A stretch of DNA of 64,000 bases, taken from an uncultured bacterium (lineage in GTDB: Bacteria; Margulisbacteria; WOR-1; CAVSGV01). Location of the stretch: the NCBI GenBank assembly GCA_963768305.1, contig CAVYHE010000003.1, forward strand, positions 276,253 through 340,252, in the 5' to 3' direction. Position 1 is the stretch's first letter; every line of letters begins with the position of its first letter. Shown here one piece after another: positions 24,001 through 30,000 of this stretch. Position numbers: made by a program.

Positions 24001-27000
24001 AAAGGGATGTTTATCGTATGCCACAAAAAATGACAGCCGGTTTCATAAGCCCCTGTGTTTTCAGAAACTGAAAAAGCAATAAATATACTTCCCAAAAAGT
24101 TTAAGATTAAACCTACTAAACCCATTTTATTGATTCGCTTTCTGCGCTCCCAAATAAATAGTATTCATATTTTGTGATTTCATTTATTGATGAAGTAAAA
24201 TGGGATTAAAGCCCCCTCCTCGAACTGTCAGCATCATTCTACAGAATACAATTCATGGGTGCAAGAAGCTGAATCTGGGCCGTTCAGGATGATCATCAGA
24301 TACTGTGAACTAACCTGGGAACTTCACAGTATCCCTTTATGCTCGACTGGAGCACACAGGCACGCACGCACGGGCGCAGGAGGCGCGGCCAGGCGCAAAC
24401 CAGATTAGATATTTTATTAATTAACACAAGACAGATACATTCAAACAGTTGATAGACAGATGTTGCTCTTTAGCGTGAGAGAATAGACAGAGGATCAATG
24501 ACGTTGGATACGAACACAAATGAGAGACAGAAGAACCTAACCCAATGAGTTGAAGACACGCTGGGAGCTTGAAGTTATTGCCGCTCAACTCCACCAAAGG
24601 AGCTTCTGGGATCCCCGAAAAGAAGACGCTACATTGCTGGCCTGCACGAATAACCATTCGGCTTGTGGCTCTTGCTGAATATGTTGATGACAGCTGCCGG
24701 CGCATAGAAAAAGAGCGACGGGTATTCGCAATCGTCATAGATAACCAAGCTGGTCGGACTGCTCTAACTGGTCGTTTCCAGAGAGGAATTAAGGCTTTGC
24801 TTGAACCTCCTCAAGTGATCGTTCGTTGTGTTCCTGTGTTGCCTTCTCCGTGGTCCCGCCAAAGGAGAATGACCTCTCCTTCGCTCTTCGAGCTACGAAG
24901 GGCTGGCAATTAAGGTGTGCTACGCACATTTGAAAGGGAAAGACCATAATTCCTGCTCCGCCTTCGGCGGTATTTAACTTCGTGTCTTGCCGCCCGCCAA
25001 TCCTTCGACAAGCTCAGGACAAGTGCCCGCCAAAAAAGAACCAAAGCTCCTGCTCCGACTTCGTCGGTATTTGACTTCGTGTTGTGCCGCCGCCCGCCAA
25101 ACCTCTCCCAAAATGATGGTGGGGGAAAAACCTGGCACGTCATACTCAAAAAAAGTGGTGAAAAATGATACTAATTTAAGGCCGAAAAACCACCGGTTAT
25201 TTCACAGTATCCTATCGGGTATTTCACAGTATCGAGCGGTTAGTTCACAGTAAGTTGACTTTGTTGGCCACCCAAGACCATAATTCCCCCCATGGCTGAA
25301 GAGCTGGAATACTTAACTCTTAATGAGATAAAAGCTTTTCTTAACTCCATCGACGATATCCGCGACCGGGCGCTGATAACCCTATTTCTTAACACCGGCC
25401 TATTCCTGAACGAAATAACCTCGCTGAAAATTGATTCCGTCGACTGGAAGAATAAAATTCTGAATGTCCCCGGAAACCGTAAAAGGGCCATTCCTCTCAA
25501 CGACCAGGTTTTTGATGCGCTTGCCAAATGGTCGAAGGAGCGTCCCTCGGGCAATATCTCCGAGCTTTTTGTCACAACAAAAGGCGCGCTGAAAGATCTG
25601 ACCAGCCGCGGCGTAGATTATCTGATTAGAAAATACGCCGATCAAGCAGGCATCAAAAAAACGGGTCAATCCGCAGATACTTCGCAATACATTCGCAGTC
25701 CGGCTTTTCTCCGAAGAACCCTCCGTGGAAAAAGCTTCCGCCATTTTGGGCATATCCGATCTGGAATCGGTAAATCGCTATATAAGGGCCTCTAAATTGC
25801 CGCCGGCCAGGGTAGAGATAACTGAAAATCTTGAGCATATCGATACTCGCCATCCCCTTGTCAAAGCCGTTTCCAAAATGTTCCCGACAAAACCCAAAGC
25901 CGTTAAGCCGACGACCGAAATAAAAGGCCCAATAACTCCCAGCCCCGAAGAAGTGATCTTCGGAAGGGATAACATAATCGCCGACATAAAAGCCGATATC
26001 GCCAAAGGCCAGTCTGTTTTATTGACGGGTCCTCTGGGAATAGGCAAAACGCATTTATTGAAGCACATGTTAAAAGTGCTTGGTCCTAATACAATATATA
26101 TATCATCCCCAACCCCGCTTAAAACCGCCCTGATGCAAATACTCGTAAAACTTGATCCTGAATGGAATAAGACGCTGAATACAAGAGCTTCAACGAAAGA
26201 TATAACCGACTATATTGTGAAAGATAAAAGGGGAAAAGCCTCCCGTCCTGCTTATCGACAATTTAAATAATATCAAGATTTCTGATATTGATCCTGTTTT
26301 AAGCTTTTTGAATAACTTCCCCGTACTTGCCGCGGCTGATGAAACAAAGCCCAAGCTGAAGCAGATATGGTGGCAGCTCAAACAGGTCGCGCTTCCGCCG
26401 TTAAATGAAGATGCCTCAAAGGAACTTATCAAATATCTTACGCAGAACCTTACTATCAGCGATTATGAAATGCTTGAAACAAGGATATCTGACCCTTTCA
26501 AGCGGCCTTCCCATCGCGATCGTAGATATGGTCCGTCAAATAAGTCATATCCGGAAGATTTCAGTTGATGTTATTCGTGATGTTTATCACGAAGCCGGGA
26601 TTCAATATCGCGACTGGACGATGGTAATAATCTTCATTTACTGGATAGCCGTCATTTTCAGGTTCCTTGCGCTCGGCACGAAAAGCTATGAGGCGTATTT
26701 CCTTGCAGGTTTCGGCGTAACTTTATTGATGATATTAAAAAATGTTATGTCAATGTTGAGGTAAAGGAGGGAGTTAAAAGAATTTAAGGGCTCAAATAAT
26801 AAGAGGTGATAATAAATGACAAGAAGAGAATTTATTGAAAAATGTTTTGGCAACAAACTTCAGGCAATCCCTTACAGTGAAGGCGACCATTTTAATGCTT
26901 TAGAGGAGGTCGAATCGCTACTTACTAAGCAAGGGCTTATTAATTTAGATGAGAATGATATTGAGCAAATAACCAGTACAAGCGACAAGTTAGTGGCGAT

Positions 27001-30000
27001 TTCTGCTGAGGCCCACGGAAAACATCGGTCGCACAGACTTGGTCACAAAATCCTTTCAAACATACCTGATTTCTTTTGGGATAAGAAACCCACAAATGCA
27101 TTATTTAATATCACGGGAAGTCCCGATATAACACTAAATGAGGTTAATGATGTTGCTGAACACATTTACGATTCAGTGAATCCCCACGCGAATATCATTT
27201 TTGGCGCGATTATCGATGAAAATAAAACCGATTACTTAAAAGCCACCGTGATATTCGGCGGCAAAAAATAGAAATGTGAGGTTAAAATATGGAACCAATT
27301 TTTACTTTATCCTTTCCGGAATATAAGGTTGTTCTGAAGTTATTGGGGCTCTATAAGCCAAAATATGGCTATTCAATATTATTGCCGTTGAGCAGGCAGC
27401 AAAAAGGCTTCGATCTGCTAATTTACAATTTAAATAAACATAGATCTGCTTCAATCCAGGTAAAAGGCTCTCGCTCATATGACGGACATAAAAACGATCC
27501 GCATGATTATAATCTTTGGTTTAAGAGGTTTAAATATAAAGAGGGTATGGCCGATTTTTATATTCTGTTTAGTGTATATCCCCAATTGGCTTCTAATATA
27601 AAGCGTCTCGATCATTCAAGAAATACATCGCGTTACAGCTATTTATTCATGCTATTAAAAGATGTTGAGATGGAGAAGCTCTTGGTTAACCTTAAAACTA
27701 AAAAAGGGAAAAGGGATAACTCTTTTCAGTTCGGTTTTGACTCTTCTGGCAGAAATATATTTCTGACCAGAGGTATTGGTAGGCAGAAAGAGAAGCCCTA
27801 TAATAAATATCTGCTGGAGAACAGGGTCGATTTGATAAAGAAATTTCTGAAATAGGTAAATTATGCTCGCACCCACCCATAGCGTATTCGGCATCTTTTT
27901 AACGCTGATATTCCTGGCGGTGTTCGGGATTCAGTGGAGCCTGCATTGGACGATAATTCTTGTTGCCATTTTTGGCTCGATCGTTCCCGACATTGACCAT
28001 CCCCGTTCCGTCATAGGCAAGCTCTTCCCCTATATCTCCATCCCCTTAGAGCGCAGATACGGCCATAGAACGATAACCCATTCCTTCATCGGCTGGATAA
28101 TTTCAACTGTCATTTTTGCTTTTCTTGTCTTGCTTGTAGTTTTGATATTTAAATTTGTTTCGATTCTCGGACTTCCGTTTCGGGTTTTATCTTGGGCGGA
28201 GTCGAGGGCTTGGCTCCCCGCTGGATAGCCGCATTTTCAATATCTTATTTTTCCCACCTGCTTTTGGACATGTTCAACAAGCGCGGCAGCCAGATGTTCT
28301 GGCCTAACCTCAGTCGTGATGTTATCCCGAAAAATCCAAAATACCGCCCTGAATCGGGCTCAAGCGTTGAGCCTTTTATCTTCATTATTCTTTTCATATT
28401 GATGCTTTTTGCTTTCCCGATCTCCAAATACGGGATAGCAAGTTCGCTTCGCTGGCTTATGGCTACTCCCGGCTCCGCCATGCAAGAATTCCAGTCCCTC
28501 AAGACCCATTCCTATGTTGATTTCAACGGCTATTACACGGAAACAAAAGAGCCGCTTGAAGGGACCGCAGAAATACTTGATGTAGACAAAGGACGGCTGG
28601 TAGTACTTTATAAGACCAAGATTTACACGTTAAGTGACGCTCTAGCCGCCGATATAACCGCCTCCCATGTCCGGCTGAAAAGGACGGATATTCCAATTAA
28701 TATCACGCAGAAGATATTTAAGGATGAAAACCGCGATGAGTTGCTTGCTCAAATTCCTGCAGGCGCGCTTGTTTCGGGAACAGTTAAGCTCCCGGAAGGA
28801 ATGGAGCTTCAATTCCCCGCCTTCCCCGGCTCTTATAAGCCAATGGATCAGAAAAGCGGGAACCTGATCCTTTTATTCGCCTCAAAAGACCAAATTGAGA
28901 AGCTTGCCCTCACGGAAACCTTCGATCTGCTAAAAAGAAAGGACCAGGCCGACCTCGCCCAGCTGTACGCGCAGGCGGATAAGCTCAAAAGCCAGATATC
29001 GGAAGCGGAAACTGGCGGCGGACTAACTCCTTTGGGCCAGGAGCTTATGATGAACAAGGATGACATCCAAAAGCAAAAAGCCCAGCTTGCCGATTTGAAA
29101 GGCCAGCTTGATGAAATAAATGTTAAAATTGAAGAGCTTCAATTGAAGATAAAGGCCAGAAAGTTCGTTTTTTCAGGAGAGGTTTATTTAAGGCAATAAG
29201 GAGGCCTGATATGAGAAAATTAGTCGTTTATCTTGTAATAATGAGTTTATTGTCCCCGCTTATCGGCTCTATTGCTTATGCTTTTGAGTATACCCTCGCC
29301 CCAAATGATACTCTTGAAGATCAAATTAATGCCAAAAGGACATGGATACAAAGCAAACTATCGCTCCGGATGGCACAATTTCGCTTCCCTTCCTCGGAAG
29401 GGTCCAGCCTCAGGGCAAAACGCTCAGTGAATTTCAAACCTATTTAACAACCGAACTTGCCAAATATGTGAACAAGCCTCAGCTTGTCGTTTATCTTAAC
29501 GCCAAGATCGATATATGTCGTTCAGCATAATCTCAAGACGAATCTTTCAGAGGTAAGGAAGCTAAATCCATTGACAGAAGCTAAAGCATTATGCTGGCGA
29601 GGATTACACAAAAGAGATCAAATATGGCGATGTTATAACCGTCGATGTCGGCATTCAGCCTGATTGGTGGGAAACTAACTGGTACAAGGTCATATCCGCA
29701 ACGGCTGTGCTCGTAGGAATAGATGCGGCATTAAAGAAATAGGAGGGAGGTGACAAATGAGCCCTAAACAAAGACCTGTAAACTTCGGCTGGATTCCTGA
29801 TATCCCCGACCATCGCGATCATTTGTATGCCGCGCCTCTTGAATGGATCGCAAAACTTCCCGCAAAGGTAGACCTCCGTCTCCAATGCCCTGATGTATAC
29901 GATCAAGGCCAGTTAGGAAGCTGCACGGCGAACGCAATTGCCGGGGCAATGGAATTTGAGCAGATAAAGCAGAAAGAAAAATATTTCATGCCCTCTCGCC

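Follow-up and report, generated by a model that had tools for sequence, protein, structure and literature searches.

A stand-alone C-terminal half of FtsZ encoded on integrative islands of Margulisbacteria

The half-FtsZ gene and its island

The window, a 64,000-nt stretch of the genome of an uncultured Margulisbacteria bacterium, carries a real gene on its forward strand at 26816..27271 (ORF list and Pfam), whose 151-residue product consists of a remodelled helix H7, a T7 loop, and the C-terminal subdomain of FtsZ, with the GTPase domain, linker, and C-terminal tail all absent. A Shine-Dalgarno-like GAGGTG, read from the sequence, lies at 26803..26808 (+), 7 nt 5' of the ATG. The sole Pfam match is FtsZ_C (5.4e-15), and tblastn reveals no N-domain remnant in 24000-29000, with all other matches at E values of at least 0.36, in agreement with the genome-wide survey's note, which had described the protein as the FtsZ C-terminal domain alone. 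In alignments the homology to FtsZ spans H7 through S10, with residues 26-149 aligned to residues 188-311 of M. tuberculosis FtsZ by phmmer against the PDB, and the AF2 model of this half-FtsZ (pLDDT 87.6) finds FtsZ C-halves as its best Foldseek matches (TMq ~0.7, rmsd ~2.1 Å). Against the NCBIfam FtsZ model (TIGR00065) the protein scores 51.6 bits, where the cut-off is 295.

Alignment to FtsZ places a T7 (synergy) loop-like GLINLDENDI at residues 40-49 (26933..26962, +), with NLDENDI in place of the NLDFADI of FtsZ, as had been noticed in the survey; N43, D45, and D48 correspond to N207, D209, and D212 of E. coli FtsZ. The most FtsZ-like portion of the protein, delimited by column conservation, is the block formed by S8, a loop, H10, and S9 (residues 94-133; 27095..27214, +), with L107 corresponding to L272 of E. 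coli FtsZ. The identities given in the survey's note were reproduced: 39% between this protein (g00404) and host FtsZ over 120 aa, 38% between the second copy of the genome (g00766, on contig C7) and host FtsZ over 82 aa, and 36% between the two copies over 95 aa. Neither is a fragment of the host gene, as had also been claimed, with host ftsZ (contig C6) intact and the only PF00091 match of the genome, and no second PF00091 gene was found in any of the five genomes searched. The C7 copy does lack the T7-loop region, but it is not simply short at the N-terminus; alignments show an N-terminal helix motif followed by an in-frame gap of ~40 residues, corresponding to the remainder of H7 and the T7 loop. 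As reported, this copy has two integrase genes and an HTH_17 excisionase-like gene next to it, with tRNA-Met at 7967-8042 of its contig.

The island surrounding the window copy has a G+C content of 33–47%, apart from one 1-kb bin at 52%, compared with 46–50% for the contigs, and the mobility genes attributed to it were all located. A 167-aa tyrosine-integrase fragment occupies 25292..25795 (+; Pfam Phage_integrase 2.5e-15, profile positions 2-125 of 172), whilst the right end is marked by a large serine recombinase at 42668..44128 (+; Pfam Resolvase, Recombinase, and Zn_ribbon_recom), 52% identical to that of an island in the related genome G004, and by the abutting tRNA-Arg(TCG) at 44100..44174 (−; ARAGORN and Rfam), which forms the island boundary. 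Upstream of the half-FtsZ gene, a P-loop/STAND-like ATPase at 25725..26764 (+) is broken over three frames (25725-26270, 26308-26568, and 26405-26764 in the ORF list), with weak AAA/nSTAND Pfam matches on the first piece. Starting 17 nt 3' of the half-FtsZ stop, a 188-aa ORF (27289..27855, +) is matched by nothing in Pfam, PADLOC, PHROGs, or NCBIfam; among the named clusters of the ESM Atlas, those closest to it are PDDEXK_5, NOV_C, and DpnI (0.87–0.90), which hints weakly at the PD-(D/E)XK nuclease clan. A YdjM-like membrane protein follows at 27863..29199 (+), split over two frames with Pfam YdjM on both pieces, which are 78–86% identical to one intact 451-aa ORF of the G004 island. The window island also holds remnants of a type ISP restriction system.

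A conserved family retaining the polymerisation face

The survey's note had recognised only two members and no relatives on the basis of a word-indexed single-sequence search, a view overturned by a six-frame search of related genomes, a full HMMER scan, and a profile search. The six-frame search recovered full-length relatives of 39–56% identity encoded by ORFs of 147–166 aa, and the profile search delimits a discrete family of 141–178-aa proteins in 22 clusters scoring 164–211 bits, the window's protein at 211, with the next matches being FtsZ fragments of at most 125 bits. The family is monophyletic, with all 31 rows falling in one clade (support 99/95), and dN/dS values of 0.14 and 0.15, including 0.15 for the window copy against its ortholog G004a, indicate purifying selection. 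Judged from their sequences, these proteins are thus a conserved family under purifying selection and not an orphan pair. Members occur in 6 of 146 Margulisbacteria genomes and in metagenomes, and none was found in phage collections; the FtsZs that score best against the family are those of Margulisbacteria and Saganbacteria. This stand-alone half-FtsZ family is rare, conserved, and previously undescribed.

Column conservation within the family is concentrated in T7, S8, H10, and S9 (0.63–0.76), where family and FtsZ agree in their consensus residue at 75–100% of columns, and falls to 0.29–0.42 in H8, S7, H9, and residues 82-93. For the elements of the block at residues 94-133 it is 0.59–0.76, with such agreement at 60–100% of columns, and the short linker between H10 and S9 (residues 120-125) reaches 0.45. 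T7, S8, H10, and S9 make up the plus-end (bottom) polymerisation face of FtsZ. By this measure only these elements stay FtsZ-like, and the family keeps the surface by which FtsZ touches the next subunit. In E. coli FtsZ numbering, the equivalents of D212 and L272 are retained in 90% and 97% of the family. N207, D209, and F210 do not vary among the 35 rows of FtsZ used for comparison; in the family they are relaxed, with the N207 equivalent retained in 73%, that of D209 in 43%, and that of F210 variable. FtsZ itself (TIGR00065, PF00091 and PF12327) thus shares with half-FtsZ the fold from H7 to S10 and the T7/S8/H10/S9 consensus, but half-FtsZ lacks the GTP-binding domain, linker, and C-terminal tether peptide, and forms a separate, fast-evolving clade.

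Island cargo and the WYL regulator

The half-FtsZ genes are cargo of tRNA- or tmRNA-linked integrative or defence islands, with a tRNA or tmRNA and recombinases at four of the nine loci. At three of the nine, an orthologous WYL regulator (58–61% identical) lies upstream, and these three half-FtsZ genes bear the regulator's island-specific promoter box, TAGTGTCATACC followed after 9 nt by a -10-like hexamer, which also precedes other island genes. The box was found only within WYL islands and not ahead of repair genes, the 18 other one-mismatch matches inspected lacking the full element, and the WYL protein therefore appears to regulate locally, within its island. In other genomes the same orthologs drive cargo of the AbiE, GmrSD, and AbiU types, and half-FtsZ is absent from five of the eight genomes with a WYL ortholog. 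Immunity is therefore suggested by the setting no less than control of division.

An HTH-WYL-WCX regulator adjoining its gene is a feature shared by these three loci with DriD-didA and PafBC. The spacing of the box, 9 nt 5' of the -10-like hexamer, resembles the geometry of the PafBC '-26 promoter motif' as described in PMC11804915, and DriD is presented in PMC9186387 as activating a division inhibitor. In contrast to these systems, the half-FtsZ box is limited to WYL islands and is not found at repair genes, and the regulator is absent from the window's genome.

Possible modes of action

The best explanation of the sequence evidence is that the gene's product is functional and belongs to a small family built from the 'bottom' half of FtsZ, and family members probably bind FtsZ or factors that target it. 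We tentatively favour, at somewhat short of even odds, a protein that is made upon induction and binds host FtsZ on its GTP-bearing top face, sequestering subunits or capping minus ends. As the retained face is the plus-end one, half-FtsZ could dock only on the top (minus-end) face, and because only plus-end-face elements are kept and host FtsZ has the sole tubulin-type GTPase domain of these genomes, this docking would be the most likely one. Lacking both a top face and a membrane-tethering tail, the bound protein would withdraw an FtsZ subunit from plus-end addition or cap the minus end of a filament, and division would be expected to stall or freeze for a time. The promoter box that three relatives share with WYL-controlled genes suggests that half-FtsZ is probably switched on upon island activation, by a presumed inducing signal.

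Several known systems act in a comparable manner. SulA, MciZ, MinC-N, and MipZ are likewise small, made-on-demand blockers of the FtsZ polymerisation interface, as half-FtsZ would be in our preferred reading, but they are unrelated in sequence (FtsZ_C is the only Pfam domain of half-FtsZ). In a MinC preprint (10.1101/2024.03.31.587266), the natural inhibitors discussed bind the C-terminal, plus-end face, whereas half-FtsZ is that face and could bind only the opposite one; the same text argues that N-terminal-face binders nucleate or stabilise filaments unless they sequester, which makes monomer sequestration or a minus-end cap a better fit than a classical growing-end cap. Lambda Kil and T7 Gp0.4, which block FtsZ according to PMC3961180 and PMC13423816, are also encoded by mobile elements and aimed at the division machinery, but half-FtsZ copies half of the target instead of being a short unrelated peptide. 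The WYL activator that drives the division inhibitor didA (PMC9186387) and the inhibition of division by overexpressed, truncated FtsZ1 (10.1101/2025.09.29.679267) are further precedents. FtsZ1 and FtsZ3 of Agrobacterium (Hyphomicrobiales) are, like half-FtsZ, shortened FtsZ copies beside the essential gene; they keep the GTPase domain, lose the tail, and are vertically kept paralogues, the reverse of half-FtsZ, which is moreover island cargo. The nearest functional analogues are the L178E-type top-face mutants of E. coli FtsZ, with an intact bottom face and an unusable top face, although these are engineered point changes in whole FtsZ and half-FtsZ misses the entire top half. FtsZ top-face mutants are reported to be less toxic than bottom-face mutants. 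L178E serves as monomeric FtsZ in PMC13423816.

Against the binder reading stand the preference of the inhibitors in the MinC preprint for the other face, the nucleation or stabilisation argued there for binders that do not sequester, the relaxed N207, D209, and F210 equivalents, the absence of the WYL gene and box from the window, the decayed upstream genes, and the C7 copy without a T7 loop. Furthermore, one relative (P0141) is a fusion of an HNH nuclease, a coiled coil, and half-FtsZ, which would be easier to reconcile with a sensor domain than with an inhibitor; together with the defence-island setting and WYL control, this may leave room for a decoy or sensor role. The main rival, which we regard as possible if somewhat doubtful, is a bait, with the free C-half absorbing FtsZ inhibitors of phages or elements and thereby shielding division, or signalling them to neighbouring effectors as immune decoys do. 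MinC, SulA, MciZ, MipZ, and T7 Gp0.4 are mapped either to the C-terminal polymerisation face or to the surface of the synergy loop in 10.1101/2024.03.31.587266 and PMC13423816, the latter predicting that Gp0.4 binds the synergy-loop surface and describing a defence protein that senses the Gp0.4-FtsZ complex; the family retains precisely this inhibitor-targeted face. The surroundings include a type IIG RM system, an OLD-family nuclease, AbiU, and the WYL regulator (a PADLOC defence-associated model), nuclease-type genes directly adjoin half-FtsZ at the G001 (PDDEXK_5) and G004b (OLD) loci of related genomes, and the HNH fusion has an effector-sensor layout. However, the T7-loop mimicry is imperfect, with D209 and F210 equivalents varying while host FtsZ is 77–92% identical across the class, and Margulisbacteria FtsZ has no known phage inhibitor. 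A conserved effector partner is not seen, the neighbours differing at all nine loci, and at the boxed loci half-FtsZ has its own promoter box outside any operon, whilst the fusion is a single cluster of two members, both on short contigs.

An unlikely alternative is that the fold has been exapted for partners distinct from FtsZ and serves variable island genes, such as nucleases or the ClpP/AAA+ proteases of these islands, as a regulatory subunit or adaptor, the likeness to FtsZ being mere ancestry. The rapid evolution of the family (end branches of 0.02–1.9 in the tree, compared with 0.00–0.06 for Margulisbacteria FtsZ) would suit such a change, as would an N-terminal motif, F-x-N-K-[LV]-x-x-[IV]-P, that is conserved in the family, specific to it, and without a conserved FtsZ counterpart, a ClpP paralogue directly 3' of half-FtsZ in G004a, and AAA_2 ATPases bearing the same promoter box in other WYL islands. 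Nevertheless, the conserved parts are FtsZ self-contact elements with FtsZ consensus residues, unexpected if the partner had changed, and no neighbour is common across subfamilies.

Docking confined to the top (minus-end) face would also be compatible with a stabiliser or nucleator, which as a minus-end cap would slow subunit loss or seed filaments and so modulate the Z ring and not block it; this is improbable, as half-FtsZ has no tail for membrane tethering or bundling partners, and its patchy spread and island placement are ill-suited to a normal division role. There is similarly little probability that the window copy is a silent passenger of a decaying island, inherited intact and no longer expressed or used, for although its flanks are broken (the integrase, ATPase, YdjM, and restriction remnants), the WYL regulator (by tblastn of the genome) and box of its G004 counterpart are missing, no sigma-70-like site was found just upstream, and the C7 copy has lost its T7 region, the gene retains a full-length ORF with a good ribosome-binding site, a low dN/dS, and every nearly invariant residue of the family.

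Relatives and domain make-up of half-FtsZ

The open reading frame at 26816-27271 (+), preceded by a GAGGTG ribosome-binding site 7 nt 5' of its ATG, is present as the genome-wide survey's note had claimed, and encodes a 151-aa protein (half-FtsZ) whose sole Pfam match is, as also claimed, FtsZ_C (PF12327, 5.4e-15), with no Pfam match to PF00091, the tubulin/FtsZ GTPase domain with the G-box. A search of solved structures aligns residues 26-149, without large gaps, with residues 188-311 of M. tuberculosis FtsZ, a span comprising the end of H7, the T7 loop, and the entire C-terminal subdomain. 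The model predicted from 15 family sequences (pLDDT 87.6, pTM 0.83) is placed by Foldseek on the C-terminal half of FtsZ chains, with an E-value of 4.5e-11, a TMq of ~0.7, and an rmsd of ~2.1 Å over ~124 columns. The T7 synergy loop N-x-D-x-x-D is present as N43-L-D45-E-N-D48, there is no disordered linker or C-terminal tether peptide, the alignment ending 2–3 residues past S10, and the TIGR00065 score is 51.6 bits against a curated cut-off of 295.2. Judged by sequence, half-FtsZ is a protein outside FtsZ proper, with the GTPase domain and tail missing and the score below the curated cut-off.

The identities in the survey's note are reproduced, at 39% over 120 aa between the window protein and host FtsZ (intact on contig C6), 38% over 82 aa between host FtsZ and the second half-FtsZ of this genome (the C7 copy), and 36% over 95 aa between the two short proteins. 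That these are not host-ftsZ fragments is likewise upheld by tblastn and by PF00091 counts. A pseudogene fragment is ruled out, with tblastn of host FtsZ against 24000-29000 and against C7 1-9000 revealing no remnant of the N-domain (next best match in 24000-29000 only E 0.36), as is a split FtsZ with a separate N-half gene, PF00091 occurring once per genome, in ftsZ, in all five genomes searched, disregarding one sub-threshold match (16.9 bits) in genome G135; the sole match in the window's genome is the host ftsZ on C6. Half-FtsZ is therefore neither a torn piece of ftsZ nor one half of a split paralogue. It is also unlike the truncated FtsZ1/FtsZ3-type paralogues of Agrobacterium, which, in the cited sections of 10.1101/2025.09.29.679267, retain the GTPase domain, and we class it with the accessory factors of mobile elements that derive from FtsZ or are directed at it.

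The absence of relatives asserted in the note does not hold, with six-frame, full HMMER, and profile searches recovering a family. The word-indexed single-sequence search, when repeated, returns only FtsZ fragments of ≤40% identity. When 41 related genomes are searched in all six frames, short ORFs of 147–166 aa match the query nearly end to end, with identities of 56% and 45% for two loci of G004, 42% for G001, and 39% for G007 (all Margulisbacteria), and HMMER applied in full to 1.84 billion representatives yields ~12 proteins of 145–160 aa, aligned from residue 1–9 to 140–149. A 15-member profile retrieves 22 clusters at 164–211 bits, the window protein matching end-to-end at 211 bits, and the next match is an FtsZ fragment at 125 bits; the best longer protein among the matches listed is a genuine Margulisbacteria FtsZ at 126 bits. 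A whole family within reach of profile or six-frame searches can thus escape a word-indexed search.

A maximum-likelihood tree of 66 rows places every one of the 31 short proteins, including the C7 copy, a divergent member from G126, and the HNH fusion, in one clade (support 99/95) with the window protein inside it, separate from the Margulisbacteria FtsZ clade (98/90) and with much longer branches. The dN/dS ratio is 0.14 between the second G004 locus (G004b) and G001 (dS 1.07), and 0.15 between the window and the first G004 locus (G004a), at a dS of ~2 that is near saturation. Host FtsZ is 76–92% identical across the class. Named records place the relatives in Candidatus Saganbacteria/candidate division WOR-1, with examined members in six of the 146 genomes of the phylum sample (G000, the window's own, G001, G004, G007, G135, and G126) and one further short match in G131. 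A scan of genome contigs with the N-terminal motif of one subgroup matches two WOR-1/Saganbacteria records only. A metagenome scan gives at least 436 relatives, swamped by FtsZ; among the 80 loci kept, L055 is the only short member off a contig edge, and L111 resembles a broken FtsZ.

P0141, which joins an HNH nuclease, a coiled coil, and half-FtsZ, is the only fusion known; a profile search that scored the best 7999 candidates by shared words reveals no other, the 41 listed matches of 281–2000 aa all being true FtsZ. Members carry only the names "hypothetical", "FtsZ", or "FtsZ C-terminal domain-containing" in public records, and full-text literature searches, with subscription journals outside their coverage, yielded no account of a family of free-standing FtsZ C-domains. 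PADLOC-DB 2.0 holds no match to the window protein at E ≤ 0.001, and PHROGs v4 none to the three family members tested at E ≤ 0.01. A phage origin is rejected, with no half-FtsZ found in IMG/VR using either a single protein or the family alignment A3, and no PHROG match; the one IMG/VR match, at 159-1301 of a contig catalogued as viral (L049), is a complete FtsZ that has both domains and a tail.

Islands, neighbours, and a WYL regulator

Nine half-FtsZ loci were examined for context. A tRNA or tmRNA adjoins four of these (the window, G004a, C7, and G004b), with recombinases also in the window, G004a, and C7 loci, and G004b lying between tmRNA and smpB. Recognised defence genes are close by in four loci, namely the window, G004a (type IIG RM, Cas4-like, and ShosA-like), G004b (DpnII/methylase and an OLD-family nuclease), and G007 (AbiU/AIPR). 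An orthologous HTH-WYL-WCX regulator (58–61% identical) is encoded 0–2 genes upstream in three loci, G004a, G007, and G135, and no other neighbour common to subfamilies is found among the nine.

A promoter-like box, CGTA(G/A)TGTCATACC (the TAGTGTCATACC box), lies upstream of half-FtsZ in these same three loci, with a -10-like hexamer 9 nt further on. The half-FtsZ ATG of G007 and G135 is 12–13 nt past the hexamer, a distance that suggests a near-leaderless start. The element also occurs 5' of an AAA_2 ATPase gene in G031, 5' of a RecA/KaiC-like gene and of a cargo gene of no known kind downstream of WYL in G136, and 5' of the next small gene in G135, which, given its own copy of the box, probably has its true start ~50 nt (17 codons) downstream of the called one. 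Upstream of the WYL genes themselves, G004a and G007 have TGTCA 11 nt 5' of TATAAT, and G135 has no such site. The geometry of the box recalls the "-26 promoter motif" of the WYL activator PafBC, as presented in the cited section of PMC11804915. A genome-wide box regulon is rejected, the 24 one-mismatch matches in five genomes being at the level of a reversed-pattern control, and the full element is absent from all 18 matches inspected outside WYL islands; from these sequence matches, the putative promoter element is local to WYL islands.

WYL orthologs (≥58% identity) occur in eight of 146 genomes, and the five of these without half-FtsZ carry AbiEii, GmrSD, or other cargo. In the whole of the window's genome, tblastn with the G004 WYL protein finds no ortholog, and no full box is present. 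Three WYL islands without half-FtsZ (L146, L147, and L148, in G031, G040, and G136) encode, in divergent orientation, AAA_2 (Clp/Hsp100-type) ATPases of ~320–350 aa, adjoined in G031 and G040 by zinc-ribbon-like small genes; a RecA/KaiC-like ATPase is found in the G136 island and an AEP-TOTE primase near the WYL gene of G040.

The conserved face and what it may bind

The family begins where H7 begins in FtsZ and ends 2–3 residues past S10, without linker or tail. In place of the first half of H7, members have a motif peculiar to the family, F-x-N-K-[LV]-x-x-[IV]-P (F11-G-N-K-L-Q-A-I-P19 in the window protein), predicted to form a short helix and a strand. Of 30 members, 87% retain K14 and 87% retain P19; in family alignment A2, K14 is close to invariant, and in A3 the same holds without exception for F11, K14, and P19. 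A comparison of 30 members with 35 FtsZ sequences gives conservation of 0.67 for T7, 0.63 for S8, 0.67 for H10, and 0.76 for S9, where the family consensus equals that of FtsZ in 75–100% of columns, against 0.29–0.42 for H8, S7, H9, and residues 82–93, where the consensus is mostly unlike FtsZ. The residues which we take to be equivalent to D212 and L272 of E. coli FtsZ are retained in 90% and 97% of members, and those presumably equivalent to N207 and D209 in 73% and 43%; the position we take to be F210 is invariant in FtsZ and variable in the family. The C-terminal polymerisation surface, or plus end, is built from H10, S8, and S9 in the MinC study's own account (10.1101/2024.03.31.587266), and the family thus appears to have retained the self-contact face while the remainder drifted, with the interface assigned from secondary-structure elements and E. 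coli residue numbers.

Only one surface of half-FtsZ is constrained as in FtsZ, namely that which contacts the GTP-bearing top (minus-end) face of another FtsZ subunit, and the sole protein with such a face in these genomes is host FtsZ, which together favour a top-face binder. The GTPase site of FtsZ is complete only once the nucleotide pocket of a subunit has received the T7 loop of its neighbour, and Oliva et al. reportedly found in 2004 that separately expressed FtsZ domains complement in trans. Our preferred, still tentative, reading is that half-FtsZ, produced once the regulator of its island is triggered, would dock on the top face of host FtsZ, and either withdraw subunits from plus-end addition or cap minus ends. 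Precedents for element- or damage-induced division inhibitors are, in the cited sections, Kil (PMC3961180) and DriD-didA (PMC9186387, PMC4211646), with division also inhibited by overexpressed FtsZ1 (10.1101/2025.09.29.679267). However, the regulators named in the cited portion of 10.1101/2024.03.31.587266 all target the opposite face, and the same portion expects filament stabilisation from top-face binders, sequestration excepted. The catalytic T7 positions are also relaxed in the family, and the neighbouring genes are immune rather than divisional, both of which also count against this reading.

The main rival, which we consider possible but distinctly less probable, is that half-FtsZ is a decoy of the FtsZ face hit by SulA, MciZ, MinC, MipZ, and T7 Gp0.4, as these are described in the cited parts of 10.1101/2024.03.31.587266 and PMC13423816. 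Both the island setting and the HNH–coiled coil–half-FtsZ architecture of P0141 speak for a decoy. Slightly more doubtful is its specific form, in which a free-standing decoy of the plus-end (bottom) face, WYL-induced within defence islands, would capture phage FtsZ inhibitors (Gp0.4, Kil, SulA-like), with the HNH-fused form firing its nuclease. Plant immune receptors have "integrated decoys", and such a decoy would be a bacterial counterpart built from half an essential cytoskeletal protein. An exapted adaptor serving other island proteins is unlikely, and a filament stabiliser, or, for the window copy only, a silent passenger in a decaying island, is more improbable still.

Were top-face binding to hold, half-FtsZ would be the first natural regulator directed at the top face of FtsZ, and a ready-made probe of filament polarity and treadmilling; a natural, selected protein consisting of the T7 half only would be a new way to control or exploit completion of the GTPase site. 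If a decoy, it would extend the guard-and-decoy logic of bacterial immunity to the division machinery. Under either reading, a cytoskeletal element joins the cargo of WYL-controlled defence islands.

The window island and other half-FtsZ loci

The window gene lies within a ~22-kb, mostly low-G+C stretch between gpmI (20889-22421) and tRNA-Arg/pgk, with a large serine recombinase at its right end. The island contains an integrase fragment, a three-frame P-loop ATPase, a split YdjM, a C1 peptidase, type ISP restriction remnants, and a DprA-like gene, and shares partial synteny with the G004a island (YdjM 78–86%, DprA-like 84%, and recombinase 52% identical). Directly 5' of the intact half-FtsZ gene, 25292-26764 comprises the integrase fragment followed by the P-loop/STAND-like ATPase, which has a hydrophobic tail and is broken over three frames, and seems to be the remains of one gene or of a gene pair. 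An 18-nt direct repeat (CGGTTATTTCACAGTATC-like) is present in three tandem copies at 25194-25254, just 5' of the integrase fragment, with a fourth copy 16.4 kb rightward at 41600-41617; these repeats could mark the termini or arm sites of a nested element with half-FtsZ inside. At the tRNA-Arg, a perfect 33-nt repeat of its 5' part (44144-44176 and 44980-45012) brackets a 211-aa ORF without a family, and resembles an att-type duplication left by a second small insertion.

A 1209-aa ORF (31215-34844), located where G+C is lowest in the island (33–36%), has no credible Pfam, PADLOC, or NCBIfam match, and the type ISP restriction-modification remnants at 34890-37957 consist of a 622-aa piece with Type_ISP_C and Eco57I, then short ORFs and a trace of N6_Mtase. 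A 188-aa neighbour of half-FtsZ has a fold predicted without an alignment at a pLDDT of 33.5, too low to be of use, and BLASTP against the PDDEXK_5 neighbour of half-FtsZ in G001 gives only E 17.

For the C7 copy (L019, G000:C7 85-423), the T7 region is absent, as the survey's note held, but the cause is an in-frame gap of ~40 residues spanning the remaining H7 and T7 rather than a short N-terminus; the N-terminal helix motif is retained. Its own long branch in the tree points to a separate acquisition and not a recent duplicate.

In G004, a ClpP paralogue begins 14 nt past the half-FtsZ gene of locus L015 (C1; 10491-11069, 17954-19843), the island of which terminates at tRNA-Gln, ~0.75 kb from host ftsZ. 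In the tmRNA-linked G004 island (L016, on C1), a 14-nt unit, GGAGAGCAGAGACT, stands in four tandem copies at ~9860-9930, with the OLD-family nuclease region on one side and the second half-FtsZ gene on the other. The small genes downstream of half-FtsZ in loci L018 (5275-5583) and L051 (8546-8884) are 56% identical and match PHROG families without an assigned function, a zinc-finger family among them. The papain-family C1 peptidase of the window (29757-30524) is 85% identical to that of L016 (11857-12627), and ORF6N-domain genes lie within ~7 kb of it in both islands.
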